This document shows, in pieces, positions 1,652 through 37,371 of a stretch of 37,371 nt of DNA. Source of the DNA: a virus (taxonomy: Duplodnaviria > Heunggongvirae > Uroviricota > Caudoviricetes); the IMG/VR virus record IMGVR_UViG_2579779116_000018, positions 1 through 37,371 of that record, one strand, 5' to 3'. The notes below the pieces were generated by a model, which saw only the letters and a program-made list of their open reading frames with translations, ran no database searches and was not told the DNA's origin. Position numbers and translations under genes: made by a program. Numbering within the stretch: the stretch's first letter is position 1; every line of letters begins with the position of its first letter.

Positions 1652-3331
1652 ATGAAAACTAAGTTGTATTCATATATCCGCTTCTCGTCTATGAAGCAAG
1701 CGGATGGTAGTTCTTATGAACGCCAGAAGAGAACAGCGAAAGAGATAGCCGCAAAATATGATCTTGAGCTAGTTACAAGCTATCAGGATTTTGGTGTATC
1801 TGCATTCAAAGGGGCTAACAGTAGAACAGGTGCACTATCTCGCTTTCTGGATGAGATTGGTCGATCTGTTCCGGTTGGTAGCTGGCTGGTTGTGGAAAAC
1901 TTGGACCGTATCTCTCGCCAATCCATCATTGAAGCACAAGAGCTATTTCTCTCGATCATACGTAGGGGAATAACCATTGTCACTGGTATGGATGGGAAAG
2001 TGTATAGCCGCGAATCGGTTAATGCTAATCCCATCGATTTACTATTGAGTGTCATGTTGTTTGCGAGAGCTAACGAGGAAAGCCAGACTAAGCGCAATCG
2101 TACTAACTCAAGCGCACTGATTAAGATTAAGTCGCATCAAGAAAATCCCCAGAATCCGGCAGTGGCAATCGAGGAAGTTGGGAAGAATATGTGGTGGACG
2201 GATACCACTTCCGGTTATGTGTTGCCTCATCCTACATACTTCCCTGTTGTTCAGGAGATTGTGGAATTACGGAAGAATGGACGTTCAACCGCCGAAATAC
2301 TGGATCACCTTAACGAGACATATGCACCACCACCAGCAGTAAGCAACAAGAAGCATTCAAAATGGTCACGGGCAATGGTTGAAAGGTTGTTTCATACCCG
2401 CGCTTTGATTGGTATCAAGGAGGTCTCTGTCGATGGTGTTAACTATGAGTTAAAGGATTATTACCCTCGTGTTATTGATGATGCTACGTTCTATCACCTT
2501 AAGAAAAATATTGGTGCTAGAGCATGGAACTTTGGAGACAAGGAAGAAGTTAAACCGATCCCCCTGCTTAGTGGTATTGGCCTATTGAAATGTGATCATT
2601 GCGGTTGCGCTATGGTTAAAGTGAAGGGAACGAACAAACGTTCTGACCAGTATCGTTATACATGTGATGCGACCCGTTCACGTAGACTTGATTGCGAGCA
2701 TCCAAACTGGAGTTTTCGAGGTGATCAATTAGAGAAAGCTGTATTGCAATTGCTGGCTGATAAAATCTGGATTGCTGAGGACAAGGCTAATCCGGTTCCG
2801 GCGTTGAAAGTACAGGTTGATGAAATATCACGCAAGATTGATAACCTGATTGCCCTTTCTGCTATGACAGGAGCAACGAAGGAGCTAGCCGATCAGATTA
2901 CTACCCTCAATAGCGAGCGTGAAACACTCTACAATCAGATCAAGATGGCAGAAGAGGAAATGTATTCTGTTGACTCTCAAGGCTGGGAGAAGCTCGCAGA
3001 ATTTGATTTAGAAGATGTTTACAACGAGGAACGACTAAAGGTCCGGTTTAAGATTAAGCAAGCTCTAAAGCGGATCGGGTGTAGCAGGATTGACAGAAAC
3101 AAAAACTTGTTTGTACTGGAATACATCGATGGAAAGACCCAGAGAGTTGTAATAGAAAATTCAAGAGGAACGAGGAAAGGACAAATCTTTGTCGATTTGA
3201 AAACTATCAATGATAGGCAGATTCTGGAGAGTAACGGGCTTGTTCTGCATCCATGTTTAGACATGCTGACAGATAAGAACTGGAAACCAGAAGAGGAAAT
3301 ACCAGGTCCATTACAGGAATTTGGAATTTAA
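1652..3331 (+). CDS. large serine recombinase (559 aa)
   Basis: N-terminal resolvase-type catalytic domain (YSYIRFSSMKQ with candidate nucleophilic Ser), recombinase domain, Cys-rich zinc ribbon CDHCGC...YTCDATRSRRLDCEH, and C-terminal coiled coil: the typical large serine recombinase architecture. Confidence 0.9.
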   Translation: MKTKLYSYIRFSSMKQADGSSYERQKRTAKEIAAKYDLELVTSYQDFGVSAFKGANSRTGALSRFLDEIGRSVPVGSWLVVENLDRISRQSIIEAQELFLSIIRRGITIVTGMDGKVYSRESVNANPIDLLLSVMLFARANEESQTKRNRTNSSALIKIKSHQENPQNPAVAIEEVGKNMWWTDTTSGYVLPHPTYFPVVQEIVELRKNGRSTAEILDHLNETYAPPPAVSNKKHSKWSRAMVERLFHTRALIGIKEVSVDGVNYELKDYYPRVIDDATFYHLKKNIGARAWNFGDKEEVKPIPLLSGIGLLKCDHCGCAMVKVKGTNKRSDQYRYTCDATRSRRLDCEHPNWSFRGDQLEKAVLQLLADKIWIAEDKANPVPALKVQVDEISRKIDNLIALSAMTGATKELADQITTLNSERETLYNQIKMAEEEMYSVDSQGWEKLAEFDLEDVYNEERLKVRFKIKQALKRIGCSRIDRNKNLFVLEYIDGKTQRVVIENSRGTRKGQIFVDLKTINDRQILESNGLVLHPCLDMLTDKNWKPEEEIPGPLQEFGI

Positions 3332-3404: not shown

Positions 3405-4580
3405 TTAGAGAGCGTTTAAGAGAGTATTAAAGTATTCATCCATTAAATCAGGATTGTTGTCATCAATACAGAAAAATTCCGGTTTATTGATGCCGTAGAA
3501 GTGAGTATGTAGCTTGAATGTATCGTCATCAAATACATCTTTCGGAGATACCCACATATTAGCCTCGTCCGGTTGATTGGTTAGGTAGTCATAAACCAGT
3601 TGCTGTAAGTGCGGCAACTCATCAATAGTCAGAGTTTCCGACCATCCATCCTTGAAATCTTTGTAGGGTGCTGCATGAGTCTTGAAGCGTTGTTTTACTT
3701 CATGCTCTAAATCGGCAGCTTTCCAACCATCCTCAAACTCATGAGTAAAGATTAAGCGGTGAGTGAAGTTGCTCTTTCTGGTTTGTTCTCTCATTCGTTC
3801 TTCTGGTTTTCGGGTAGTGATTCCAAATTTAATAAATTTGTCATCTAATAATTGAATGTAGAAACTAGCCTTACCCTGATAAGTCCGGTTAGACAGTTGC
3901 ACCAGTTGGTCTTTAATGCAAAGCGGACAAGTGAAAGAATCAGCACATCTTAAATGAGATTCCCATTCGTGGTTATGTGACTTGCAATAGGTTTTAAATT
4001 TAACATCCTTTAGGTGTGGGGTGTTTATGGTAAATCCTTTGAAGATGTAAGGTGTAGTCTCGCAACGTGCATTGATGATTGTCTCTTTGTCCTTAATAAC
4101 TTCATCAAAAGTCTTGCCACTTCTTACCCGTTGGGATTTTTCAGCCATACAGATTTTACAATCAAAATCAAAATCATCCTTGAGAGCATGTAATAGAGAT
4201 GGCGTCATGATTTGATTGTGTATAGGACACAAAACACGGGCTTTTGTCTTGTTGCGCCCTTTCCATTCTCCTTGCCATCCTAGAAACTTCTTTCCCTTCT
4301 CATTACAACGAGATTCCATTTTCAACCATACAGCCTTTTCAGTCTGGAATAACTCACCCCCGTTAGTATCTTCCAGTTTGCGTAATTTGTAGTCCTTATA
4401 TTCTTGTGTATCTAAATTGTAGATTCGAAAGTAAGTGTGATTACCCTTCCACGGTAGGATAAATCCACCAAATACGAAAGCAGGTTCCAGTTTAGCGATG
4501 ATTCGTTGTTGGTACTCTTCCGGCGATAAACCGCGAGTTTTCTTAACAAAAGGAATTTCGGCAGCGTAAGCAAGTTTCAT
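3405..4580 (-). CDS. Zn-ribbon-repeat / T5orf172 domain protein, paralog B (391 aa)
   Basis: Start moved from ORF-track 4691 to the internal ATG at 4578-4580, which has RBS AGAGGAAACTACT upstream and gives an N-terminus (MKLAYAAEIPFVKKTRGLSPEEY) matching the paralogs. WKG/C...CP.C repeats and C-terminal FYIQL...KFGITTRKPEERMREQ. Confidence 0.75.
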   Translation of the reverse strand: MKLAYAAEIPFVKKTRGLSPEEYQQRIIAKLEPAFVFGGFILPWKGNHTYFRIYNLDTQEYKDYKLRKLEDTNGGELFQTEKAVWLKMESRCNEKGKKFLGWQGEWKGRNKTKARVLCPIHNQIMTPSLLHALKDDFDFDCKICMAEKSQRVRSGKTFDEVIKDKETIINARCETTPYIFKGFTINTPHLKDVKFKTYCKSHNHEWESHLRCADSFTCPLCIKDQLVQLSNRTYQGKASFYIQLLDDKFIKFGITTRKPEERMREQTRKSNFTHRLIFTHEFEDGWKAADLEHEVKQRFKTHAAPYKDFKDGWSETLTIDELPHLQQLVYDYLTNQPDEANMWVSPKDVFDDDTFKLHTHFYGINKPEFFCIDDNNPDLMDEYFNTLLNAL

Positions 4581-4639
4581 AGTAGTTTCCTCTAAAATAA
4601 TAAGTTCACTACTATTTATTAGAGAAAATTGTCTTACTA

Positions 4640-4667
4640 TTGCATTCTCTATCTGAATGTGTATAAT
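4640..4667 (+). promoter_or_regulatory. putative sigma70 promoter for the 4735 gene
   Basis: TTGCAT (4640-4645), 16 bp spacer, TATAAT (4662-4667), in the divergent intergenic region 4581-4734. Confidence 0.4.
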
Positions 4668-4734
4668 ACGCGACCCTAAATCCCAAACCAACCATATTGA
4701 GGTTATGCCTATAAGTTAAAAAAGTGAGGTCTAT

Positions 4735-5304
4735 ATGATTCCAGTAATGGCTAAAGATATTGTTTTTACTCCTAAATCCTCCCGTGCTGTAACTCCATCG
4801 GCATTAGAACAACGCATTCTGACTCACATCAAAGATAAGGACTTACCATTAGTCTTTCATGGCTTTCTGGGTGAGTTTAAAGGGCTTCATTCAAGAATTG
4901 CTCTAACATGTACCCGATGCGGTAATAGAGCCGACAAATCAGCTACTAACCTGCTTAATGAAGGTAAACGATGTGTTTGCTTCAATAGTGACTACTTTCA
5001 ATATAAAGCGGGTGTGCCTTATCTCTATGTAATGAAGTCTGGGGATATTGGTAAATTTGGTGTTACAAAGTCAATCATCAAGCGACGTGTTAATCTGGGT
5101 GTACGCAATCCCGGTCATAACTTTGATATTGTCTTTGCTGGTGAAATGCCATCAATGAAACATGCTTTAGCCACTGAAAGAGCAATAAAGAGATTACTGG
5201 ATGTGGGTATAGGCGGGATTGAATACGGCAAAACTGAAACATTCCACTACTGCAATAAATCACTAAACAATATAAAGAATATTGCAAGTGTGGAGTGGAA
5301 CTAA
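4735..5304 (+). CDS. Zn-ribbon / T5orf172 domain protein, paralog C (189 aa)
   Basis: RBS GTGAGGT before ATG; one GEFKG...C..C...RCVC repeat and C-terminal PYLYV...GKFGVTKSIIKRR T5orf172-like segment. Confidence 0.75.
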   Translation: MIPVMAKDIVFTPKSSRAVTPSALEQRILTHIKDKDLPLVFHGFLGEFKGLHSRIALTCTRCGNRADKSATNLLNEGKRCVCFNSDYFQYKAGVPYLYVMKSGDIGKFGVTKSIIKRRVNLGVRNPGHNFDIVFAGEMPSMKHALATERAIKRLLDVGIGGIEYGKTETFHYCNKSLNNIKNIASVEWN

Positions 5305-6794
5305 TGCAAGATATTAAAATTCATTTTCAAGATTACAGTTTCGTTAAGGTTGATTGCTCTCCTTCTATCGGAATGGAATTAAGAGATTATTTCTCTTTTG
5401 AGGTTGAAGGGGCTAGGTTTAGCCCCCGATACAAGTATTCAGGCTGGGATGGACGAATAAGACTGTTTACGCATGAGAATACCCTACCAATTGGACTATT
5501 AAAAACGTTGGGTGTCTTTGTTAAAAATATGGGGTATTCAGTCTGGATTGACCCGCGATTGCTTGAGAAGGAAGATGTAACCAAAGAACAGATTGATTCA
5601 TGGATTGATTCTTTAGAAGTGTATTCCGGTAGCAATAAAATCAATCCTTACTGGTATCAGCGTGAAGCAGTCTTTCAGGGTATTCATAATCGCCGTAGAA
5701 TGCTGGTTCTTCCTACCAGTGCGGGTAAGTCATTGATTGCTTGTATGCTGTCTCGTTGGTACTTAGAGCATTACACCGGAAAGGTGTTAATCATTGTCCC
5801 GACTACATCGCTAGTGGTTCAAATGAGGGATGATTTCATCGATTATCGGTTATTCCCTTATGAAGCAATCCATACAATGATGAGTGGTAGCGGGAAACAT
5901 CCGGGAGACAGGTTAATCACGGTTAGTACCTGGCAATCAGCTTGCAAGATGCCTCCTGAATGGTTCAAACAATATGGAATGTTGATAGTTGATGAATCGC
6001 ATAAGGCTAGTGCCAAAAATATTACCAATATCATTAACGGAATGAATCATTGCCAATTTAAGATCGGCATGACTGGTTCCCCGAAAGAATCAAAGTGCCA
6101 TTTAATGCAGTATGTCGGGCTTTTCGGTGATATTTCCAAGATCGTGAGTATTGACCGCCTGATGGAAGAAGGGCAGGTGACAAAACTGAAAATTAACTGT
6201 CTTTTCCTTCGTTATACCGATGAGGAATGTAGCGCGGTTAAGGGGAGAGAATATGCGGAAGAGATCAAGTATATTACATCTAACCCACGACGTAATAAGT
6301 TTGCTTGCAATTTGGCGCTAAAACTCGCTAAGAAGGGCGAAAACGTATTCCTGATGTTCCGCAATACTAAGCACGGAAAACTTATGTATGACGCGTTACA
6401 GAAGGTACACGACAAGGTTTATTATATTGACGGTGGAGTTAAGACAGAAGAACGTGATGAATTTAAGAAAATGGCGGAGGGTGACACCGGGATCATTTGT
6501 GTTGCGTCTTATGGTGTGTTCTCTACTGGTGTTTCAATTAAGAATTTGCACCATGTTATTTTCGGTCATCCAGTGAAGGAATCAACTATCGTTCGTCAGA
6601 GTATCGGTCGTGCATTGCGTAAACATGGTTCTAAGGATATTGCAACGGTCTGGGATCTTATAGATCATCTGTGTATATTCGGTCGTAACGGAAAAATCAA
6701 GCATAAAAATTATGCGGTAAAACATGCACTTGAGAGAATCCGCTATTATCTAACCGACAAGTTCAGATATGCAACTAAAACAATTGCTATATAA
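5304..6794 (+). CDS. SF2 DEAD/DEAH-box DNA helicase (about 496 aa)
   Basis: Walker A LPTSAGKS, DESH box (LIVDESHKAS), motif III MTGSPK, motif VI VRQSIGRALR. Start taken as ATG 5304 (RBS GGAGTGG) rather than the ORF-track GTG at 5295. Confidence 0.85.
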   Translation: MQDIKIHFQDYSFVKVDCSPSIGMELRDYFSFEVEGARFSPRYKYSGWDGRIRLFTHENTLPIGLLKTLGVFVKNMGYSVWIDPRLLEKEDVTKEQIDSWIDSLEVYSGSNKINPYWYQREAVFQGIHNRRRMLVLPTSAGKSLIACMLSRWYLEHYTGKVLIIVPTTSLVVQMRDDFIDYRLFPYEAIHTMMSGSGKHPGDRLITVSTWQSACKMPPEWFKQYGMLIVDESHKASAKNITNIINGMNHCQFKIGMTGSPKESKCHLMQYVGLFGDISKIVSIDRLMEEGQVTKLKINCLFLRYTDEECSAVKGREYAEEIKYITSNPRRNKFACNLALKLAKKGENVFLMFRNTKHGKLMYDALQKVHDKVYYIDGGVKTEERDEFKKMAEGDTGIICVASYGVFSTGVSIKNLHHVIFGHPVKESTIVRQSIGRALRKHGSKDIATVWDLIDHLCIFGRNGKIKHKNYAVKHALERIRYYLTDKFRYATKTIAI

Positions 6795-7536: not shown

Positions 7537-7574
7537 GTTATACCCCCATAAGATTCTATGAGGGTATTTATGGA

Positions 7575-18235: not shown

Positions 18236-18280
18236 TATTGTTTCCTCATTAATAGTGATTACGCTGTATTTATTTAGAAT

Positions 18281-28838: not shown

Positions 28839-30743
28839 TTAGAACGATGTTACCCAGCTACGGCCTCTATTTGGGCGTCTGGCGATGTTTTGACGTTGTG
28901 GTCGTGTGATTGGCTTAGTTTCTTCGATTTGCTCGTCAGATTGCGATTTAGGAGCTTCTACAGGTTCTTCTGGTTCACGGTTCAAACTATCTTTGATGGC
29001 TTCGAGTTTTTCCCATGACATTTTATTGAGTACATGACGAGAAGCAGCATAGGAATAAGCCAGGCAGTCGAGAGCCTCGTTTCGTTGCTGACCAACTTTT
29101 ACCCAACGTGTGGTATTACCCTGCCGTTTCAACTGTTCAGATAACAATTGCTCGCAATAGTCATCAGGAACGTCACCAATCTGGAAGACCGTATGAGGAT
29201 CGCTGTCTCTCAAGTTCCGGTTAATCATTTCACGGATCATCGTCTTAAGGTTGTTTACGCCCAGAATTTTGAGAGTAAAACCGCCCGTTCTTGTGTCCTT
29301 AGCCGGAAGGATTGGAGCATCAGCATTACTTGCGCCTTTAATGGCGCATAGGTTTTGCCACCTAGTGCAAAAACGGTAGATCACGTTTGTAGCTCGTCCG
29401 TTCGATGAGTCCACGAAAGCAGATAACATCGGGATTCGTTCACCGGATCGGGTATAGAATTTCGCTTTCAGGAAGTTATAAAGCTGGTCATATGCTGGCG
29501 ATTCGTGGCGTTCGCAGTTCACATCATAGAATGATCGGTGATCAACTACGCATATCCCCTTACGAGAGATACCCAGCAAGGTAGATTCCAGACGGTCTTT
29601 TTGCTGGTCAACTCCACCTACCAGAGCCAGTACATCATCAGGAATATTGTCTAGGCTAATATCAGTTTTCAGCGTTTCCAGTTCGTCGGCTGTGCGGTCT
29701 TCGTTAAGATCATCGAAGGTTTCGCCTAAGACAGTGTTATAGAACGTTGCCAGGGACATATTCGCGTAGCTATCAGCAAAGTCCACCACACACGCACGGA
29801 TAGAACTAAACGGAGACATAAGGCGGTTAGCATGAAAACCGATTACTTCCGCATTTGGTTCGGTGGCGACCCATTCTCCCTGAGCAACAGCACGGAGGCG
29901 ATCCCCTTCGGTCCAATCGGTTTCACATTCAGGGCAACGGTAAACGGCTGTATCTGGGTTGGGTAATGATTTACCGTTAATCGTATGCCAATCGAAATGT
30001 ACGTTACTCCATTCCATTACGTGCTTGTGTCCGCAATGCTGGCAAACGACATGATATTTTCTCTTATCCGAGAGTTCCCATTGTTGGTTAATCGCCCCAT
30101 CACGAGCGGTTGGAGTGGAAGCAATTACGATCCTTGCATCTTCCCCGAAAGTGGTTGCGCGTTGTTCCGCTAGCTGGATCGGGTTCCCTTCGTCTGACTC
30201 ATCAGCCGCATCAACTTCATCAAGAATAATCAAAGGGAGTGTTTTACCGCGAAGATGTGACGGACTATTCAACGACATGAAATACATAAACGATCCGTTA
30301 CGAAGCTGAATAATCGATGAGTTGTTAACGGCATTGCGATCTGATTTGTCGGTGATCATCGCTTTTAATTCTGGCGTTGCCTCTAATACTGGCTTCACCT
30401 TACCAGCGATCCAAGAATTTAGTTCCCTAACGTTACTTTGCAAGACCCCAATATTAGTAGGGTTACTCGCGATCCGATGGAAGATAATTCCGTTAAGAAT
30501 CATGGTCTTACCCAACTGCGCCGAACATTTAAACACAATTTTTCTACGGTCTTCGGTGATCGCGTCCATCATTCCACGTTGGAAGGGATGCAATTTAATT
30601 AGCGATCCGGCTTTAACACCATCGGTTGCAACTACATTAGCCTCTACCCATTCGCTAGGTTTCATGGCTTTAGGTGGGCGAATTGCAGCAGAGATATTTC
30701 TGAGAATCTTTTTTAATTTTGCCTTATTAGAAATCAGTTTCAT
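28839..30743 (-). CDS. terminase large subunit, lambda gpA-like (634 aa)
   Basis: HPFQRGMMDAI, Walker A-like KCSAQLGKTM, Asp-rich LIILDEVDAADE, Cys cluster CQHCGH...CPEC; first gene of the minus-strand late operon. Confidence 0.9.
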   Translation of the reverse strand: MKLISNKAKLKKILRNISAAIRPPKAMKPSEWVEANVVATDGVKAGSLIKLHPFQRGMMDAITEDRRKIVFKCSAQLGKTMILNGIIFHRIASNPTNIGVLQSNVRELNSWIAGKVKPVLEATPELKAMITDKSDRNAVNNSSIIQLRNGSFMYFMSLNSPSHLRGKTLPLIILDEVDAADESDEGNPIQLAEQRATTFGEDARIVIASTPTARDGAINQQWELSDKRKYHVVCQHCGHKHVMEWSNVHFDWHTINGKSLPNPDTAVYRCPECETDWTEGDRLRAVAQGEWVATEPNAEVIGFHANRLMSPFSSIRACVVDFADSYANMSLATFYNTVLGETFDDLNEDRTADELETLKTDISLDNIPDDVLALVGGVDQQKDRLESTLLGISRKGICVVDHRSFYDVNCERHESPAYDQLYNFLKAKFYTRSGERIPMLSAFVDSSNGRATNVIYRFCTRWQNLCAIKGASNADAPILPAKDTRTGGFTLKILGVNNLKTMIREMINRNLRDSDPHTVFQIGDVPDDYCEQLLSEQLKRQGNTTRWVKVGQQRNEALDCLAYSYAASRHVLNKMSWEKLEAIKDSLNREPEEPVEAPKSQSDEQIEETKPITRPQRQNIARRPNRGRSWVTSF

Positions 30744-30828
30744 GTAATTACCCTCATTACGAAATATGAAGGTATTTATTAAATTGTTGATATTTTGATA
30801 AATACGGGTATTAATTAAAGGGGGTTGT

Positions 30829-31431
30829 ATGCTAATTAATCAGCAACAAAGAGATGAATTAGAATTAGCCTTGTCTTGTACCGATCATGAATATCGTTTA
30901 CCAGTTAAGCATAAGCATTTAAAAACCGACTACACAACATCTGGCTTTAGTCGTGAGGAAGCGAAAGAGATTTTAATCGAGTTGTATCGCGATCATGGGT
31001 ATACCGATATTCATAACTTCTTTAAGAAGCATCGCACATCACAGACAGAGTTTCGGAGAGTCCGAGATTGGTTTGATTTTGATATCAAGCGTTATTATCG
31101 CATTGATGACGGTCCTATCTATAGGTTGCAGTGGAAGCCGATCCGAGAAGTGTTGAAACAGAAGAGATTGAATCACGCTATTACACGCTATCGTAACGTG
31201 GCTTTCAAGAAAGGCTATGGTGATACAAGGGAATTGTTTGTAGAACTCGCTAACGTGCGTTATAGCCACTATTACAACGATCCTAAAGGGTTCTTTGAAG
31301 TGCTTCGCAAGGTTGATATAAGTCGGGGGACATACTATTCACGGTTGAAGAAGTACGGGATTAAGGCAGAGTTCTTTATGTCGGTTGACGATGGAGAACT
31401 TTTTCCGATAAAATGTAAGTCCTCTAAATAA
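30829..31431 (+). CDS. hypothetical protein with C-terminal DNA-binding-like motif (200 aa)
   Basis: RBS AAAGGGGGTT; C-terminal RGTYYSRLKKYGIKAEF resembles the motif in 31467-31694 and 34911-35093. Confidence 0.6.
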   Translation: MLINQQQRDELELALSCTDHEYRLPVKHKHLKTDYTTSGFSREEAKEILIELYRDHGYTDIHNFFKKHRTSQTEFRRVRDWFDFDIKRYYRIDDGPIYRLQWKPIREVLKQKRLNHAITRYRNVAFKKGYGDTRELFVELANVRYSHYYNDPKGFFEVLRKVDISRGTYYSRLKKYGIKAEFFMSVDDGELFPIKCKSSK

Positions 31432-31466
31432 AGGTGAACATTCACTTTAATTTGGAGGAAGTAACT

Positions 31467-31694
31467 ATGACTACTAAAGCTACTCGCGGTCGCCCTGCCC
31501 GTTTTAACGCTGAACAGATGGCTGATATTGCCTACGCTTACTATACAGCGGATCGTGGTAAGGAAGCGAAAGAACAGATTCTTAGTGAACATGGGATCTC
31601 AATCGCCCAATTCTATAAGAATATGAAGAAGTTAGACATTAAATTCTATGTTCAGATCGGTGATGGTCAGATCGTAGAAGCAACAGGTTTTTGA
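31467..31694 (+). CDS. small putative DNA-binding protein (75 aa)
   Basis: Start at ATG 31467 with strong RBS GGAGGAAG; N-terminal TRGRPARF (AT-hook-like) and C-terminal IAQFYKNMKKLDIKF motif. Confidence 0.55.
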   Translation: MTTKATRGRPARFNAEQMADIAYAYYTADRGKEAKEQILSEHGISIAQFYKNMKKLDIKFYVQIGDGQIVEATGF

Positions 31695-31708
31695 GTTTTG
31701 ATTCTCTT

Positions 31709-31732
31709 TGCCACTCTTCGGAGTGGCTTTTT
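31709..31732 (+). terminator. rho-independent terminator
   Basis: GCCACTC-ttcg-GAGTGGC hairpin followed by TTTTTT, directly after the 31467-31694 gene. Confidence 0.7.
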
Positions 31733-31828
31733 TGTATGTAAAACAATCGGCGCAAAACTGCGCTCATCTCGAAGCTGAGTCCAAATCTTGACTGGTCTAT
31801 AGATGCCAGCAAAAATGCTGTTATCTAT

Positions 31829-31863
31829 AAAAACAAAAAGCCCAGCGCAATTATGCGCCGGGC
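31829..31863 (-). terminator. rho-independent terminator after the Rha gene
   Basis: Minus-strand GCCCGGCGCA-uaau-UGCGCUGGGC (one G-U) followed by UUUUUGUUUUU. Confidence 0.65.
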
Positions 31864-31869
31864 GATTAA

Positions 31870-32700
31870 TCAGATCCCAAAATCAACAAGGGAAATTACG
31901 TTACCTGATTCACGAATCTGTTTAGCAGCTTTGTTTTGAATCAGAATAGTGTTATTTGGCTGCGGTAGTTTAAGAGTTGCTTTTTGTTCTTCTTCCAGAA
32001 TACCCAATTCAACCAACACAGGAAGAACATCAACAGTAAACTCAAGTTGGTAGTGAGCATTCATGCGGCAGAAAGACAGAGAAGAGTCATTAGCAACATA
32101 CCCACACGGCTTGTTATTTTCATCGTAGACGCGCTCAATGTAGCCAGCAGTACGCAAGGCCGTCAGTGCTTCTTTAACCTTCGTAGCGCCCTTTTTAGCG
32201 CCTAACAGACGGGTCATTGAATGGCTATCTACGGATTTGCGAACATGAAGTTCAATCAGCTTTTTATTTTCGCGAGTTTTCTTTAATGCCAGTTCGATCC
32301 AGTCTGTTTCTTCAAAGTCTGCATACGGGTTAACGGCTAAACGTTCCTGACGCAGTTTTTCATTTTCTTCTTTCAGTCGCTTCCATTCCTGAATAACAAC
32401 CATTCGACGCTTAACATCGTAACCAGTGACAAGAGTCAGCGTCATTTCTTCGTCTAAGTGATATACTGGTTCTTTAACAGCATATCCTAAGTTATTGATT
32501 CTCTCGACAAATTCAGTTTTGAGCTGATCGATAATACCTAAAGATTCGTACATTTCGCGAATATCGCGCATTACATTGCTGTGCTTCTTATCGGTAAATT
32601 CAGCGATCTGACGAGAAGACATGGTCAGCGGTTTGGTGTTATCAACAACCAGAGACACGGAAGCAGTTTTAACAGTATTCATAGTAGTAACAGTATTCAT
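31870..32700 (-). CDS. Rha-family phage regulatory protein (276 aa)
   Basis: N-terminal LTMSSRQIAEFTDKKHSNVMRDIREM matches the Rha signature; RBS AAGGGGAATT; gene begins with an 18 nt direct repeat (MNTVTT-MNTVKT). Confidence 0.8.
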   Translation of the reverse strand: MNTVTTMNTVKTASVSLVVDNTKPLTMSSRQIAEFTDKKHSNVMRDIREMYESLGIIDQLKTEFVERINNLGYAVKEPVYHLDEEMTLTLVTGYDVKRRMVVIQEWKRLKEENEKLRQERLAVNPYADFEETDWIELALKKTRENKKLIELHVRKSVDSHSMTRLLGAKKGATKVKEALTALRTAGYIERVYDENNKPCGYVANDSSLSFCRMNAHYQLEFTVDVLPVLVELGILEEEQKATLKLPQPNNTILIQNKAAKQIRESGNVISLVDFGI

Positions 32701-32803
32701 AGTAAAAATTCCCCTTAAACGGTTTAGTGATTGATTCTCCTGTTTTTAACTGTCCACACGCCAACGGCGCGCGGAACAATTTTATTTATAAGAAGTTTTT
32801 ATC

Positions 32804-32950
32804 TCATTTAGATTCAGCAATCGCGCGATCAATTTCTTCTTGAATGCGACGCTGGCGTTCATGGAAGTCAACCATTGAGAAATTCAGGTTTGGGGTCCAC
32901 GGTTTGCGGTTCGGGTTTTTACGTCCATCAATTTTCTTAGTAGTGTTCAT
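32804..32950 (-). CDS. small basic protein (about 48 aa)
   Basis: Hand-found ORF MNTTKKIDGRKNPNRKPWTPNLNF... with RBS AAAGGGG, immediately downstream of the minus-strand promoter. Confidence 0.35.
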   Translation of the reverse strand: MNTTKKIDGRKNPNRKPWTPNLNFSMVDFHERQRRIQEEIDRAIAESK

Positions 32951-33008
32951 AATTAACATCCCCTTTACAAATCTAGGTCAAATAGGTTCAAAGTTGTCAA
33001 GTGCGATA

Positions 33009-33037
33009 ATCATAAAAAAGTCAGAAATTTTTGTCAA
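33009..33037 (-). promoter_or_regulatory. sigma70-type promoter (minus strand)
   Basis: On the minus strand TTGACA (33032-33037), 17 bp spacer, TATGAT (33009-33014); drives the small ORF and Rha gene. Confidence 0.5.
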
Positions 33038-33072
33038 TACCCCTTGACAAGACGCCAAAGGGTTGACCTAAC

Positions 33073-33525
33073 TTACAGCATATCTAAGCCTTCATCGTAA
33101 CCGTAGAAGCCACCGTGAGAAGAAAAACAGATTGGAGCGTAGTCTTCGTCTTCCTCATCTTCTTCATCTTGTTCTGGGGCTTCCTGAGCGGGTTGTTTAC
33201 CATAATCAGCCATAATCTGGTCAAGATCGGCGATCCCATAGTAAGAGCCTAAATCAACGTCATATTCACGAACATCAAACGGCAGGTCATCACGAACAAT
33301 AATTGCCGGAATGTTGTTGTATTGTTCACGACCTTCATCAGTAAAGCAGTCTACGATCACCGTAGGGCGACCATTACGTTTAAAAGCATAGAAAGCAGTT
33401 GAGAAATTGGAGTCTTCGGAATGACGAATGATGTTATAACCACGATTAGCGAAAACATGCATCATAGCCAGATTATCATCATGGTTCAGACCCAGAAGTA
33501 CGAAAGGAGTTTTAGTATTGATCAT
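33073..33525 (-). CDS. acidic hypothetical protein (about 150 aa)
   Basis: Start placed at ATG 33523-33525 with RBS AGAGGATACCACT; C-terminal acidic run EEDEEDED; first leftward gene leaving the control region. Confidence 0.6.
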   Translation of the reverse strand: MINTKTPFVLLGLNHDDNLAMMHVFANRGYNIIRHSEDSNFSTAFYAFKRNGRPTVIVDCFTDEGREQYNNIPAIIVRDDLPFDVREYDVDLGSYYGIADLDQIMADYGKQPAQEAPEQDEEDEEDEDYAPICFSSHGGFYGYDEGLDML

Positions 33526-33725
33526 AGTGGTATCCTCTAAAAGAAAGTGAATCAAACAAAGTACACTAGTATTTATAACGAGAATTTTTTATCTATTTGG
33601 AAGTGATTAGATTCAGTCGGCTTCGCCTCCTTCATAGATTTTGATTAAATCATCATCAAAACGAAGAAGTATCTTTAGAATATAAGAATCTTTCTTTTGG
33701 AGAAATTATAATCAGGAAGCAATTT

Positions 33726-34057
33726 AGCAACCGAAGGTTGCAATCCCGAAGGGATACCAATACCTTTCATGATCATTAAAGTGATCTAGAATCATCTAGT
33801 AACCAGTTAACTACTATTATCTTCAAAGTGATTATTACTATCTTTCTAGAATCAGTTAGTAACTAGTTTAAAATCCCTTTCAAGAAAATCCTTTCAGAAG
33901 TGATTCTCGATGCCACGCAGTGGCGTCGCAGACGTTTGAGAGTGAGCGAAGCGAGCGAGCAAACTAGTTAATTCCTTCTAAGACCATCTAGTATCATCTA
34001 GTTTAAATTAGTGTTACTAGAAGTAATTGGTTAGCGCTTCGCGCAGTCGGGCTACGC
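33726..34057. repeat. three pairs of short tandem hairpins interleaved with CTAG-rich AT-rich repeats
   Basis: Pairs at 33726-33753 (GCAACCgaaGGTTGC + ATCCCgaaGGGAT), 33911-33934 (GCCACgcaGTGGC + CGTCgcaGACG), 34032-34057 (GCGCttcGCGC + GGGCtacGCCC), separated by repeats such as TCTAGAATCATCTAGTAACCAGTT. Confidence 0.4.
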
Positions 34058-34203
34058 CCTCCTAATATCTTTTTGGTTATTTGTTGTTTTTGGTTTTACA
34101 CATGAGCGTAGCGAATGTGTTATATAATATCTATGCACGCCCGATCCCCGCTTTTGCCCCTCACTAAGTTAATGTTTTATAAAGAGTTTTTCTTACCAAT
34201 CCT

Positions 34204-34393
34204 TTTCGGGGGCAAATTTCAGGGGCAAAAATTAGATTTTCAGGGGCAATTATTGGCATTTCAGGGGCAAAAATGAGGGGCAAAATCACCGTTTCCCAGA
34301 ATTTCAGGGGCAAAAATAGTAGGTTTCAGGGGCAAAAATGGGATAGTGAAATCTAGGGGGATTTTGGTTCAGGGGCAAAATTCAGGGGCAATT
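34204..34393. repeat. iteron-like direct repeats, consensus TTCAGGGGCAAAA (about 10 copies)
   Basis: Copies at approx 34204, 34218, 34238, 34260, 34274, 34304, 34324, 34352 (degenerate), 34369, 34381, irregularly spaced; all same orientation; immediately upstream of the promoter at 34461. Confidence 0.7.
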
Positions 34394-34460
34394 TTCATAG
34401 TGTAGGGCTAGTGTAGGTTTGAAAGTCCTTTCTTGACACTATGTAGGTTTGGTGCTATAC

Positions 34461-34490
34461 TTGACAATTCGAGAAAAAATGTGGTATAAT
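34461..34490 (+). promoter_or_regulatory. strong sigma70 promoter with extended -10
   Basis: TTGACA (34461-34466), 18 bp spacer, TGGTATAAT (34482-34490). Confidence 0.6.
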
Positions 34491-34727
34491 ATTTGTATTG
34501 AAAGTGAAAATTTACCGATTTTCCTTCCTATTGTTATCACCGTGTTAAATTGTTATATGTTTGTGAAGATTTGGATCTGAGAGAAAATCTTGTAACAAAT
34601 CTTTACAATTCATAGCTCAATTAATGCTCACCGCTTTAGCAAAAAGTGCTATGCAATTTTCTAAATTGATTGAATAAACATCAATTTGGTTAATTCGTGT
34701 TCTTCTCTTTAGCAATTCGTGCTGCGG

Positions 34728-34780
34728 TTTAACACATTTAACACGTCTGATAACATCTGAATAACATTTTAACATATCTC
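34728..34780 (+). repeat. five phased TAACA repeats at about 10-11 bp spacing
   Basis: TTAACACA, TTAACACG, GATAACATC, AATAACATT, TTTAACATA in the same orientation, one per helical turn. Confidence 0.4.
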
Positions 34781-34817
34781 TGTTATAAATACATATATAA
34801 GAGATAAATGTGAGGGG

Positions 34818-34847
34818 TTGAAAAATAAAATACAATCCCCATATAAA
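34818..34847 (+). promoter_or_regulatory. possible second promoter
   Basis: TTGAAA (34818-34823), 18 bp spacer, TATAAA (34842-34847); weaker match. Confidence 0.3.
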
Positions 34848-34854
34848 TAATAGT

Positions 34855-34875
34855 GAGCGGTTAACGCTCTTTTTT
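34855..34875 (+). terminator. intrinsic terminator / attenuator within the leader
   Basis: GAGCG-gttaa-CGCTC hairpin followed by TTTTTT, 35 nt upstream of ATG 34911. Confidence 0.5.
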
Positions 34876-34910
34876 AAGAAATCATTAATCCAGATTTAGG
34901 AGGATTTAAG

Positions 34911-35093
34911 ATGGCACGACCTGTTAAGTTCACTCGTGAAATCGTTTTAGAAATGGCAAAGCGTTATTTTGAACTGACACCTGATGTAGTGATGGGTGAA
35001 TGGTTTAAAGGTGAAGGTATTGATCAATCAACCTTCCACAAACTCTTAAAGAAGTATGACATTAAAGTAAAGATTACCGCAGAGGTGTGGTAA
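34911..35093 (+). CDS. small putative DNA-binding protein (60 aa)
   Basis: Strong RBS AGGAGGA; MARPVKF N-terminus and STFHKLLKKYDIKVKI C-terminal motif, paralogous to 31467-31694. Confidence 0.6.
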   Translation: MARPVKFTREIVLEMAKRYFELTPDVVMGEWFKGEGIDQSTFHKLLKKYDIKVKITAEVW

Positions 35094-35206
35094 TAACCTT
35101 TCACTGAGAATTATATGATGGCTTTAAAAAAGAAAAAGCCTCCCTTGTTGCAGCAAAGGAGGCTTGAAATGAACAATTAAAACTAACTTTCCACGGAGTA
35201 TTTATA

Positions 35207-36148
35207 ATGTTATTTTCCGCTAACTTTTTCACTAACGAAGTAACCAACGCTAAAGCAGTTATCAAATTTGGCACCGAAGCAAACAAGAAGATTCAGCCGA
35301 AAGTTGTTGCTCATGTTTCCTTTGCACAGCAGAAATCCGCTTTCGCTGGCTTTAAAGCACATCGTGAAGCACTGATCGCGGCTGGCTTTGGTGTTGACGG
35401 TAAACTGCCTAACGGCATTCGTAAAGCAATCGACCGCGTTAAACCTGCTAAAGACGTTGCAGTAGACCACATCGTTACTTTTACCGTTAAGAACTCTTCT
35501 GAACTGTTCCACCTGGTTATTGCTGGTGATACTGCTATCGTTTCCGCTCCTAACATGGATTTTCAGGATACCGCTGATTGCCAGATCACCTTCGGTCGTC
35601 GTAAAGAAGTTACCGGAAAAGCTAAACTGAACTTCACTAAATCCGGCAATCCTTACTTTGCTGTTTTCTTTAACAGCCACGCTACCGAAAAAGAAGTTGT
35701 AGAACTGGTTGCTTATGAAGGTGAAGAGAAAGAACGTATTGAATCTTGCGAAGCATTTCTGGAACTGGAAGCACAGGTGAATGCTGTTTCTCCGGTTGTT
35801 GAAGATCGCTTTGCTGCACTGGAAGCACAGATCGCAGAACTGAAAGCTGCACTGGAAGAAAAAGACCAGATTATCGAAGCACAGAAAGCTGAGATTGAAG
35901 AACTGAAAGCTAAAGAAGTTGCTCCGGTGGCAGTAGTTGAAAACGCGGCTGATGAGGCCGCAAATGATGAAGTAGAAGTGAAAATCGATGTGATGCGTGA
36001 TCCGATGGCTGCACTGCAATTACTTCGTTCTTTTAAGGGCAAATCTCATTTTTCTAGTGATGTAGAAGATGAGGAAGAAGAACAGAAACGCAATGCTGCA
36101 ATGCTTCATGATGAAATGTACGGTACTAACTTTTCTTACTGCCAATAA
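35207..36148 (+). CDS. abundant hypothetical protein with coiled coil and acidic C-terminus (313 aa)
   Basis: RBS GGAG; codon usage visibly different from the rest of the window (CTG, GAA, AAA, GCT, CGT-rich, as in highly expressed E. coli genes); heptad-like EAQIAELKAALEEKDQIIEAQKAEIEELKAKE; followed by terminator. Confidence 0.75.
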   Translation: MLFSANFFTNEVTNAKAVIKFGTEANKKIQPKVVAHVSFAQQKSAFAGFKAHREALIAAGFGVDGKLPNGIRKAIDRVKPAKDVAVDHIVTFTVKNSSELFHLVIAGDTAIVSAPNMDFQDTADCQITFGRRKEVTGKAKLNFTKSGNPYFAVFFNSHATEKEVVELVAYEGEEKERIESCEAFLELEAQVNAVSPVVEDRFAALEAQIAELKAALEEKDQIIEAQKAEIEELKAKEVAPVAVVENAADEAANDEVEVKIDVMRDPMAALQLLRSFKGKSHFSSDVEDEEEEQKRNAAMLHDEMYGTNFSYCQ

Positions 36149-36171
36149 AAAAAGGGACTCCGAAGAGTCCC
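36146..36171. terminator. bidirectional hairpin terminator
   Basis: GGGACTC-cgaa-GAGTCCC flanked by AAAAAAA on the plus side (U-run for the minus-strand transcript) and TAGTAAGTTT on the other. Confidence 0.6.
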
Positions 36172-36245
36172 TAGTAAGTTTAGGTTAGGTTGCACAACAA
36201 AGATGAGGTTATAATGAACATAATGCTACATTATCTAGTAAAGCC

Positions 36246-36273
36246 AGAAAAATAACCGCCCCTTTCGAGGCGG
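36246..36273 (-). terminator. second minus-strand terminator (tandem)
   Basis: Minus-strand CCGCCUC-gaaa-GGGGCGG (one G-U) followed by UUAUUUUUCU. Confidence 0.5.
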
Positions 36274-36431
36274 GAGGATTAATACTCAATCTATACTTGT
36301 TATGTTTTTATGTTGTATAGTCACTGACTATGAAAACACTGTACTGAATGTGTTTTATGGCTTTTAATCGGGAACTCTCTTTCGAAAATTCCCTGTTAAA
36401 ACCACATAAGGAGAAATGGCAGATTACAATA

Positions 36432-36716
36432 TTATTTAGTCTGTTTGAAAACAAACGTTAAAAATTCGATTAAGCAATATACCCAGCATACAGTAAGCAG
36501 TAGATGCATAGAAATAGCCGGATGGAAGTTAAAAAGTGTCATACTAACTAGACCAACAATATAAGAAATCCCTTCGACAATTAAAGCTAGACTAGAAAAT
36601 GCAACAAACGCACCTAAGAATAATTCAGCACGTTCTCGATTTTCGGTTCCGAGTTTATAAGCAGAAATAACAGCCAGAATAGTAATGATGACAGCATAGG
36701 TAATAAAAGTAGCCAT
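36432..36716 (-). CDS. small integral membrane protein (94 aa)
   Basis: RBS AGAGGATATAAAACT; three predicted hydrophobic helices; function unknown, holin-like size. Confidence 0.55.
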   Translation of the reverse strand: MATFITYAVIITILAVISAYKLGTENRERAELFLGAFVAFSSLALIVEGISYIVGLVSMTLFNFHPAISMHLLLTVCWVYCLIEFLTFVFKQTK

Positions 36717-36742
36717 AGTTTTATATCCTCTTAAAAGTTAAG

Positions 36743-36761
36743 CGGGGGAGAACATCCCCCG
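36743..36761. other. GC-rich hairpin CGGGGGA-gaaca-TCCCCCG
   Basis: Same stem as the hairpin at 19453-19471 with a different loop; sits between the Nu1-like gene and the membrane protein gene. Confidence 0.4.
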
Positions 36762-36810
36762 TAGACGTTGACCCGTTCAACATCTTTCATACATTTATTT
36801 ATAACGCGTT

Positions 36811-37371
36811 TTAAGACACATCAAATTCATCGTCTTCTTCTGGTTCTTGTTCTTGTTCTTCCGGTTCATCCATTAATGGTAATTCTTCTTCCTCGTCTTC
36901 TCCCAAATCTGCATTTTCGAACAAGTCCCCTACTTCATTTAAACGACGCTCGATAATCTCCCTTAGCTTATTCTTTAATGTTTTCTGGTCAGTGGCAGAT
37001 TCGAGAATTTCTAAAGCGTCGATTGTGGCGATCTGCAAAATAGTCTGCTTCACTTTCCCGCAGTATTCCGCTAGTTCCTGTTCTACATACCCGACCGGAA
37101 TCAGGAGATTCATAGCTTCCTGGTTCTCTCGTTCGGCTGCATCCGCTAATGCTCTTTCCCGGCGCAACTTCTCAACATCTATTTGTTCTTTTATAGAAGT
37201 TTCTTTGAGCGGATTAATGATGTTCTTCAAGACCCATTCTGTCCCTTCTTTGGCTGGTACGCGTCGTGTATTGGTATTAAATGGCATTCCTCGTTCTTGC
37301 CATTTCTTAGCGGCGTTAATTGTATAGCCGTATAAGCGGGAAATTTCTGTAAGGGTTAATTCTTCTTTCAT
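36811..37371 (-). CDS. Nu1-like DNA-binding protein, candidate terminase small subunit (at least 186 aa)
   Basis: N-terminal LTLTEISRLYGYTINAAKKWQERGMPF resembles the lambda Nu1 winged-helix segment (IRTIQNWQEQGMPV); acidic C-terminus. The ATG coincides with the last 3 nt of the window, so the true 5' end is not verifiable. Confidence 0.6.
   Translation of the reverse strand: MKEELTLTEISRLYGYTINAAKKWQERGMPFNTNTRRVPAKEGTEWVLKNIINPLKETSIKEQIDVEKLRRERALADAAERENQEAMNLLIPVGYVEQELAEYCGKVKQTILQIATIDALEILESATDQKTLKNKLREIIERRLNEVGDLFENADLGEDEEEELPLMDEPEEQEQEPEEDDEFDVS

Follow-up and report, generated by a model that had tools for sequence, protein, structure and literature searches.

The three genes and their shared motif

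The window analysed here (the whole stretch of 37,371 nucleotides) contains three small open reading frames, which we call P1, P2 and P3. Each is preceded by a Shine-Dalgarno sequence, and the gene coordinates, like the peptides quoted in a preliminary description of this DNA, proved to be correct (Table 1). In RefSeq records of E. coli prophages the products carry the label 'hypothetical protein', and the homologues of P1 (n=42, from E. coli, Salmonella and Proteus) bear that name throughout. P1 and P2 constitute a separate, self-terminated transcription unit, which is placed at differing genome positions.

Table 1. Coordinates of the genes, modules and sequence features in the window
Feature	Position	Strand	Description	Evidence
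ATAAATAC promoter-like motif	30798..30805	+	24 nt ahead of P1 start
P1	30829..31431	+	200 aa: N-terminal helix, then two tandem module copies	ORF + SD; AlphaFold
P1 module a	30937..31128	+	residues ~37-100; degenerate, without literal motif	BLASTP, hhalign, model
P1 module b	31216..31404	+	residues ~130-192; holds ISRGTYYSRLKKYGIKA	BLASTP, hhalign
P1 motif ISRGTYYSRLKKYGIKA	31318..31368		residues 164-180 of 200
P2	31467..31694	+	75 aa: RGRP arm, three-helix HTH, beta-hairpin	ORF + SD; AlphaFold
P2 RGRP arm	31485..31496	+	residues 7-10
P2 motif ISIAQFYKNMKKLDIKF	31596..31646		residues 44-60 of 75
Terminator-like hairpin with T-run	31710..31737	+	closes P1-P2 unit
Iteron array TTCAGGGGCAAA	34153..34392	+	nine direct copies and one inverted copy
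Two overlapping consensus sigma-70 promoters	34433..34490	+	11/12 and 12/12; towards P3; TAGTGTAGG boxes on flanks
ATAAATAC motif	34785..34792	+	upstream of P3; belongs to GTTATAAATACAT-variant family
Hairpin with T-run	34855..34877	+	just ahead of P3 ribosome-binding site
P3	34911..35093	+	60 aa: ARP arm, HTH; gene 1 of P3-Q operon	ORF + SD
P3 ARP arm	34914..34922	+	residues 2-4
P3 motif IDQSTFHKLLKKYDIKV	35019..35069		residues 37-53 of 60
Q	35207..36148	+	313 aa: variable N-domain, then coiled coil; acidic tail closes with LHDxMYGTxFS

A regular expression for the shared motif had exactly three matches across all six translated frames and none in 200 shuffles, a test that is circular because the pattern came from these same sequences. 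The proteins had been thought to end in this motif; in fact 20, 15 and 7 residues follow it in P1, P2 and P3, respectively, and these form a beta-strand or hairpin. The two small proteins do begin with the RGRP and ARP segments that had been noticed: R7, G8, R9 and P10 are invariant in the P2 family, as are A2 and P4 in the P3 family, in which R3 is nearly so (one K).

Homology among the copies and predicted fold

The suggestion that the three proteins form a paralogous family was borne out by both BLASTP and profile-profile comparison. BLASTP aligned P2 with P3 over the full length (E 2e-6), P3 with module b of P1 (E 4e-4) and P2 with module a (E 1e-3). The hhalign comparisons across the family gave E values from 5e-11 to 1e-5: the P2 family matched the P3 family with 97% probability (E 5.5e-11), and the P1 family matched those of P2 and P3 with E 1.6e-7 and E 3.7e-8. 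Taken separately, module a of P1 was aligned with the P2 and P3 families (E 7.7e-9 and E 3e-9), and module b with the same two families (E 1.4e-8 and E 3.1e-8) and with module a (E 1.4e-5). Judged by these alignments, the module is tandemly duplicated in P1, and the three proteins hold four modules, two of them in P1; an HMM scan over all ORFs of the window detected no further copies. By the same comparisons the three proteins are paralogues that share a single lineage-specific, previously unnamed module with a putative DNA-binding function.

In structure prediction, which the preliminary description had proposed together with a profile search, each module that was modelled came out as three helices with a beta-hairpin, at AlphaFold pLDDT values of 80-92 (for P1, 76.5 overall and 84-92 within the modules). 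The predicted helices comprise residues 42-56, 61-67 and 72-82 in module a of P1 (followed by strands 86-92 and 97-99), residues 134-147, 152-161 and 166-175 in module b (followed by strand 180-186), and residues 15-27, 32-41 and 46-55 in P2, in which strands 61-64 and 68-71 form a predicted hairpin after helix 3 and residues 1-9 are disordered. In these models the shared motif is the third (recognition) helix of a helix-turn-helix (HTH), and not a C-terminus. The strands after helix 3 recall winged HTH domains; however, the canonical winged HTH also has a strand between helices 1 and 2, which is absent from the predicted modules. Sequence-profile searches of the PDB gave nothing significant (the best relevant match was a SorC HTH, E 0.28), and the best Foldseek hit against BFVD had an E value of 0.14.

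Relation to known DNA-binding families

Pfam and PHROG scans of P1, P2 and P3 assigned no family at threshold. HTH_3 and Phage_AlpA gave no match, the HTH_23, HTH_28 and HTH_Tnp_1 models did not detect the proteins, and HTH_7 (PF02796) failed to match any of the three even at E<=10. The Edwardsiella P2-like protein reached 14.9 bits with HTH_7 (E 0.031), the gathering threshold of this Pfam model being 23.8 bits. The profile search did, however, reveal distant links to HTH_7 and to transposase-type HTH_23/28, in which arm aligns with arm. Against a set of HTH_7 units (A6), nine of the ten members of which pass HTH_7 and which was collected using the family's own profile, hhalign returned the P3 family with 95% probability (E 2.1e-8), the P2 family with 91% (E 1.2e-6) and module b of P1 with 93%; module a was not significant. 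As far as profiles allow such a judgement, the module is a far-diverged relative of HTH_7 and of the transposase-type HTH_23, HTH_28 and HTH_Tnp_1 domains. These in-register links, the mutual homology and the AlphaFold models together support the original assignment to the helix-turn-helix type.

The layout of HTH_7 (a G-R-P arm at the N-terminus, then a three-helix HTH of ~45 residues) is matched by P2 and P3, while the P1 modules lack the GRP arm. There are also clear differences. In resolvases and Hin, HTH_7 is joined to a serine-recombinase catalytic domain, whereas P1, P2 and P3 stand alone (200, 75 and 60 aa), the Resolvase domain of the window being located in a separate gene (1652-3331); moreover, the family adds a beta-hairpin after helix 3, and P1 has two tandem copies. 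Unlike HTH_23, HTH_28 and HTH_Tnp_1 (CENP-B/Psq class), it is associated with neither a transposase catalytic domain nor an IS element context. The start of the two small proteins had been called AT-hook-like. This holds for the RGRP core of P2 (KATRGRPARF), but P3 has only MARPVKF and the P1 modules have nothing of the kind. The P2/P3 arm aligns with the GRP arm of the HTH_7 units and is better described as the arm that opens HTH domains of the resolvase/Hin type. In Hin, the minor groove of A/T-rich DNA takes up this arm, and the major groove is read by helix 3. By analogy with HTH_7-type domains, the arm of the module would enter an A/T-rich minor groove and its helix 3 would contact the major groove.

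Distribution of the family

Outside a lineage of Enterobacterales prophages whose integration site is ycdX, the module family occurs in one T4-like metagenomic phage only. This prophage lineage is present in ~1% of complete E. coli genomes (58/5426) and also in Salmonella, Proteus and Edwardsiella. Megablast and tblastn searches found no match for P2, P3 or the Q-like protein of L009 in isolated phages, and none for P3 in plasmids; a search of the literature on ycdX prophages retrieved nothing relevant. Among the proteins of the lineage scanned against Pfam and PHROGs there is no recognisable CI/Cro-type repressor, and the HTH paralogues are therefore obvious candidates for its regulatory circuit.

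The iteron-promoter-P3-Q cassette

P3 is the first gene of a cassette composed of iterons, sigma-70 promoter, hairpin, P3 and Q in all loci, the T4-like phage included; in the window it lies ~500 nt downstream of the iterons. The hairpin that precedes it is kept as a structure in all related loci; an Rfam search over 30600-37371 found nothing. A divergent operon is situated opposite the P3-Q operon. The module had been described as distributed around the control region, which is true of P3 but not of P1-P2: in the window they are 2.4 kb away from the iterons, although in Edwardsiella the P1-like and P2-like genes are directly upstream of P3.

The order of repeat array, promoter and genes resembles that of the origins of lambda O, plasmid Rep_3/RepA and T4 oriE systems; in T4 oriE, 12-nt iterons are combined with an early promoter (PMC3016281). 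Judged by layout, which differs from that of the P3-Q cassette, repEB and repEA of oriE were rejected as a model for P3-Q: these ORFs encode 45 and 50 aa and run antisense to gene 5. With its small HTH first gene behind strong promoters in an early operon, a putative initiator (Q) downstream and a divergent operon opposite, the P3 operon resembles those of lambda Cro and of AlpA in Gram-negative PICIs. The likeness is positional only, as P3 has no sequence relation to HTH_3 or Phage_AlpA, and it differs from both in the terminator-like hairpin between the promoters and P3. A role of the TAGTGTAGG boxes and this hairpin as the P3 operator was also considered and rejected, since Edwardsiella shares the P3 helix and has neither sequence.

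Do the paralogues read the iterons?

The three proteins had been put forward as candidate binders of the iterons (34204-34393); in that case they would be initiators or iteron-specific accessory factors. Several features speak for this: P3 always travels with the iteron array and Q, it has a different helix in the two lineages whose iterons are of types B and E, and in Edwardsiella the P1-like and P2-like genes begin within or beside the array. We consider such a role unlikely. Eight related prophage loci (nine with the window) carry iterons of five sequence types that are unrelated to one another. The P1 proteins of L003 (type B, CCTCCTAC iterons) and L007 (type D, TAGTGTAGG iterons) share 99% identity, the P2 proteins of L007 and L006 (type E, TGGAATCCGGGGG iterons) share 100%, and the P3 recognition helix, STFHKLLKKY, is unchanged in types A, C and D (TTCAGGGGCAAAA, TTCRRATGCTAC and TAGTGTAGG iterons). 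The N-domain of Q, in contrast, switches with the iteron type: loci of different types have unrelated N-domains, and those that share a type have N-domains with 63-100% identity. Moreover, P1, P2 and P3 have no Pfam or PHROG match to Rep or lambda-O families. As a claim of specificity, the earlier proposal is thus not supported. This covariation indicates that Q, not P1-P3, would read the nearby iterons, with its variable N-domain conferring the specificity, and the part played by lambda O or Rep_3/RepA in iteron-binding initiation fits Q and not P1, P2 or P3. P3 is physically tied to the iteron/Q cassette and may therefore have an accessory or autoregulatory role there.

A putative regulatory role

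The mutual homology, fold class and distribution of the paralogues, and their lack of covariation with the iterons, lead us to propose that P1-P3 are probably lineage-specific HTH regulators acting on conserved sites, P3 within the cassette, while the iterons are left to Q; DNA binding and a regulatory role are the most likely reading of these observations. The module would combine a flexible basic arm (RGRP in P2, ARP in P3) with a three-helix HTH and a short beta-hairpin. The recognition helix is the best-conserved part of each protein, and these helices are constant while the iterons change; therefore, conserved sites, not the iterons, are most likely recognised. P3 most likely serves the P3-Q operon as a small regulator or autoregulator in the manner of Cro or AlpA, possibly as a partner of Q, and P1-P2 are probably additional regulators.

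It is also conceivable that the paralogues work mainly by contacting other proteins, or that the DNA transactions in which they take part lie outside transcription, with roles as a directionality factor for the serine integrase, a packaging-specificity helper beside TerL or a loader bridging Q and a helicase. Many small terminase subunits begin with a small HTH domain, P1-P2 adjoin TerL in E. coli and Salmonella, no directionality factor is assigned to the serine integrase of the prophage, and P3 is paired with Q in every case. However, the adjacency to TerL is not kept in Edwardsiella, a separate Nu1-like small terminase is present (phrog_57, E 6e-15; 36811-37371), P1, P2 and P3 have no Pfam or PHROG match to TerS families, the integrase is located at the opposite end of the element, and the invariant recognition helix and basic arm speak for DNA contact. 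The small terminase role was rejected on account of the separate Nu1-like protein and the non-conserved position next to TerL, and we regard this group of functions as a whole as quite improbable.

With these results, three hypothetical proteins that recur in a lineage without a studied relative gain a name and a fold, and the search for the iteron-binding protein shifts to Q. As DNA-binding domains go, the module is of an ordinary kind. Should the cassette be a portable origin, the iteron types and Q domains that have been exchanged in nature would form a ready specificity series for experiments.

Promoter-like motifs

The sole family of 10-11-mers that four diverged prophage lineages share in their control regions consists of variants of GTTATAAATACAT, and a TTATAAATAC motif, which resembles the T4 late promoter TATAAATA, stands ahead of nearly every transcription unit in the prophage lineage. 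P1-P3 might accordingly be imagined as specificity or activator factors for the class of phage promoters marked by TTATAAATAC, the two-module P1 serving as a minimal sigma-like adaptor, which we hold to be very unlikely. Equally unlikely is the extended version, in which the paralogues would be dedicated to recognising and regulating the TTATAAATAC promoters, with a sigma-like P1, and P3 would couple them to an iteron-P3-Q cassette that would serve as a mobile origin and that T4-like phages also carry. A divergent copy of ATAAATAC, at 30772-30779, faces TerL.

Paralogy and fold of P1, P2 and P3

The small-protein genes P1, P2 and P3 had been grouped by the motif (F/Y)(Y/H)K.(M/L)KK(L/Y)(D/G)IK; the three genes are present and the motif peptides quoted for them are correct. 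The pattern occurs three times in a six-frame translation and in none of 200 shuffles, a test that is circular. The paralogy of the proteins is upheld by comparisons independent of the pattern: BLASTP aligns P2 with P3 over nearly their full length (E 2e-6), P1 with P3 (E 4e-4) and P1 with P2 (E 1e-3), and profile-profile comparison among the three homologue families gives E-values of 5.5e-11, 1.6e-7 and 3.7e-8. The motif is not the C-terminal end that it had been taken for, since a further 20 residues come after it in P1, 15 in P2 and 7 in P3. The two BLASTP alignments to P1 cover different regions of this protein (residues 40-97 and 133-186). In sub-alignments, each half of P1 is similar to both the P2 and the P3 family (E 3e-9 to 3e-8), and the two halves are similar to each other (E 1.4e-5). 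P1 is therefore a tandem duplication (copies P1a and P1b), and the window has four modules in all, no fifth being found when all its ORFs were scanned with an HMM.

AlphaFold models made from family alignments give P1a, P1b and P2 one secondary-structure pattern, three helices and then a beta-strand or hairpin, with block-mean pLDDT of about 80-92 within the modules. The motif maps to helix 3 and the turn into the first strand, while residues 1-9 of P2, including its RGRP arm, are disordered in the model. No Pfam or PHROGs family was matched by P1, P2 or P3 at threshold, and no significant match to the module proteins was found among PDB sequence profiles or, with Foldseek, among viral models. 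When 1.84 billion representative proteins were searched exhaustively with an HMM of all modules, only 27 were retrieved at E<1e-3. Those from outside the family are long proteins with repeated HTH units (Pfam HTH_7, HTH_23, HTH_28 and HTH_Tnp_1). Nine of ten units taken from these repeat proteins pass HTH_7 alone, and the units match the P3 family at 95% probability (E 2.1e-8) and the P2 family at 91% (E 1.2e-6), in register, so that the GRP arms pair with one another, as do the third helices. The sequence of the Edwardsiella P2-like protein is closer to canonical (GRKPTYAPE...GVSTATLYRW), with sub-threshold matches to the same set of Pfam families.

Structure prediction and the alignment with HTH_7 units thus agree with the helix-turn-helix type suggested in the preliminary description, and P1-P3 are very probably HTH DNA-binding paralogues. 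From these sequence comparisons we conclude that the module, which has no name, is distantly related to the HTH domains of the resolvase/Hin and transposase class, a link that misses Pfam thresholds and is partly circular, since the reference units came from the family's own profile. The GRPR arm of Hin sits in the minor groove of an A/T tract; the start of the small proteins, aligned with the arm of HTH_7-passing units, may therefore fairly be called 'AT-hook-like' as a functional analogy.

Homologues of P1, P2 and P3 are limited to E. coli/Shigella, Salmonella, Proteus and Edwardsiella, and none of them bears a functional name. The family has neither a name nor a Pfam or PHROG model, and a literature search on ycdX prophages gave nothing relevant. 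It is undescribed but of a well-known kind, the small HTH proteins of temperate phages.

The prophage lineage and its gene order

The window is a phage-like element, whose identifiable genes, other than those listed below, form a long stretch of structural genes. Of 5426 complete E. coli genomes, 58 carry near-identical DNA as a chromosomal prophage, which splits ycdX, adjoining ghrA, and in which P1, P2 and P3 are all labelled 'hypothetical protein'. All E. coli and Salmonella members of the lineage sit in ycdX (encoding a PHP-domain phosphatase) by ghrA (L001 27272-27676; L003, L005-L008). Isolated phages include no close relative, the top TerL match being to the 141-kb phage DCP80 (43% identity).

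Features of the window and related loci
Feature	Location	Strand	Remarks
Serine integrase	1652-3331
CapR-homology-domain genes	578-1624, 3405-4691, 4735-5304		surround the integrase gene
UvsW-like helicase	5295-6794
TerL, large terminase	28839-30743	-	lambda gpA-type
P1	30829-31431	+	200 aa; good Shine-Dalgarno upstream
P2	31467-31694	+	75 aa; good Shine-Dalgarno upstream
Rha-type regulator	31870-32700	-
CTAG-box stretch	33786-34017		ATCTAGWA at 33786/33796 and 33988/33998
Iterons TTCAGGGGCAAA	34153-34392		nine direct copies, one inverted
TAGTGTAGG-type boxes	34399-34451		three
Sigma-70 promoters	34433-34490		two, overlapping
TAACA repeats	34729-34773		in P3 leader stretch
Terminator-like hairpin, T-run	34855-34877
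P3	34911-35093	+	60 aa; good Shine-Dalgarno upstream
Q	35207-36148	+	313 aa
TerS, small terminase	36811-37371	-	Nu1-like; gene starts exactly at last window base
ATAAATAC copies	30798-30805, 34785-34792	+
ATAAATAC copies	7564-7571, 18266-18273, 30772-30779, 33569-33576, 35198-35205	-
Iteron type A	window, L001		TTCAGGGGCAAAA
Iteron type B	L002, L003		CCTCCTAC
Iteron type C	L004		TTCRRATGCTAC
Iteron type D	L005, L007, L008		TAGTGTAGG
Iteron type E	L006		TGGAATCCGGGGG
T4-like cassette	L009 4894-6625		iterons TAGCGATTAC, promoter, hairpin, P3-like, Q-like, 80-aa coiled-coil gene

Comparison of gene context in eight related prophage loci (L001-L008) revealed a common order: TerL (-), P1 and P2 (+), Rha (-), a 51-64-aa gene (-), a gene of about 150 aa (-), about 1.3 kb of non-coding DNA, P3 (+), Q (+) and, farther on, TerS (-). 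L005 is without P2. In Edwardsiella (L004) the TerL-Rha interval is empty of genes, and P1-like and P2-like genes, recognized with the family HMM, lie immediately upstream of P3. P1-P2 is therefore a movable pair, and the three paralogues form one cluster in Edwardsiella.

Several further observations concern these elements. The Edwardsiella P1-like gene (L004 4484-5224) has an in-frame TGA within module a and its start codon inside the last iteron; past TerS the same prophage carries a reverse transcriptase-TIR gene (L004 9413-11044) resembling a defence gene. In the window, TerL and TerS lie 6 kb apart with the entire early/control region in between, which is unusual for a lambda gpA/Nu1-type pair. 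Two of the three CapR-domain genes match PHROG endonuclease families, one also having a T5orf172/MUG113 domain.

Iterons, Q and a mobile cassette

The repeats at the iteron position differ greatly among the related prophages and fall into five unrelated types (A-E). P1-P3 had been put forward as candidate binders of the iterons; as iteron-specific binders they would be expected to change with these types. Between loci of types B and D, identity matrices give 99% identity for P1; between types D and E they give 100% for P2, and the P3 recognition helix STFHKLLKKY is unchanged in types A, C and D, differing only in B and E. Q, in contrast, shows <30% identity between iteron types and 63-100% within a type, and it is the Q N-domain that switches with the iterons. 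Linkage of Q to the iterons could add to the iteron-Q correlation, but a conserved P3-containing segment separates the iterons from Q. As a claim of specificity the proposal is therefore unsupported, and it is quite improbable that P1-P3 read the iterons; P3 may have an accessory or autoregulatory role in the cassette.

Q proteins of all types have a coiled coil in common and differ in their N-domains, and the C-terminal tail LHDxMYGTxYS is kept except in Edwardsiella and L003. The only N-domain pair with detectable similarity is that of the window and Edwardsiella (29% identity, E 1e-10), whose iterons have TTCA..GC in common. No known family was found for Q. Such a pattern would be expected if Q were an initiator-like protein whose DNA-reading domain can be exchanged while its tail, binding a partner, stays constant, and the swaps (window; L002-L008) would represent a natural specificity-swap series for this uncharacterised protein. 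The TAGTGTAGG-type boxes of the window flank or overlap the -35 regions of its strong promoters; in L005, L007 and L008 this box recurs as the multi-copy iteron.

A more distant P3-like protein, P0094, is encoded on a 168-kb T4-like metagenomic contig (L009), between counterparts of T4 genes 3 and 2. Ahead of it come some ten copies of TAGCGATTAC, then a sigma-70-like promoter and then a hairpin; the protein encoded after it has an N-domain homologous (38% identity, E 3e-14) to that of one Q type. P3 thus belongs invariably to a cassette (iterons, promoter, hairpin, P3, Q) found in unrelated phage backbones, and the insertion of this cassette in the contig indicates that it can move between a lineage of temperate prophages and a lytic T4-like phage. 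P2, P3 and the L009 Q-like protein had no match in isolated phages, nor P3 in plasmids.

Conserved elements of the control region

Downstream of the promoters ahead of P3 (11/12 and 12/12 consensus matches, with TG extension) come about 360 nt in which no ORF is convincing. The terminator-like hairpin lies just before the P3 ribosome-binding site, and in Edwardsiella and the T4-like phage its structure is kept with a different sequence. The leader (34433-34877), for which Rfam gave no match, may act as an attenuator or form a separate non-coding RNA.

Conservation in P2 and P3 is highest in the recognition helices, whose targets should therefore be conserved DNA. The control region contains two kinds of conserved element, the motif TTATAAATAC and CTAG-containing boxes. 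The core of the former, ATAAATAC (extended form aaAAwTTCTCGTTATAAATAC), is present in seven copies in the window against 2.3 expected, a number reached in 0 of 100 shuffles. All are intergenic and point to the next gene: five lie 24-43 nt upstream of start codons (P1, TerL, the ~150-aa gene and two late genes), one 118 nt upstream of P3, and the seventh, in the P3-Q gap, points at a terminator on the minus strand. None has a proper -35 ahead of it. All related loci keep the motif (with copies in L003-L008), which is the source of the only 10-11-mers common to the control regions of four diverged lineages. It resembles the T4 late promoter, TATAAATA, and may mark a class of promoters particular to the phage or, alternatively, an RNA element. 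In the 1.35-kb non-coding region CTAG occurs 11 times against 2.8 expected, a four-fold enrichment (p ~1e-4); the boxes recur in all related loci and, in the window, have GC-rich hairpins between them. Some of the boxes lie 10 bp apart, a distance that could be spanned by a two-module protein such as P1.

That P1-P3 are transcription regulators acting on such conserved sites is possible, if a little short of probable. P3, behind two sigma-70 promoters and a structurally conserved terminator-like hairpin, would regulate the P3-Q operon as a small protein placed like Cro or AlpA, and P1-P2 would form a regulatory pair, separately transcribed and with its own terminator. Of greater interest than the HTH module are features beside it: the modular exchange of iterons and Q, the occurrence of the cassette in a T4-like phage as well, and the motif resembling T4 late promoters.

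On the minus strand of the P3-Q gap (35136-35206), ATAAATAC is followed some 30 nt on by a strong terminator hairpin (35165-35136). This unit may produce a short RNA running towards the P3 3' end, with a length near 55 nt should the motif prove to be a promoter, and the same arrangement recurs in L004-L007.
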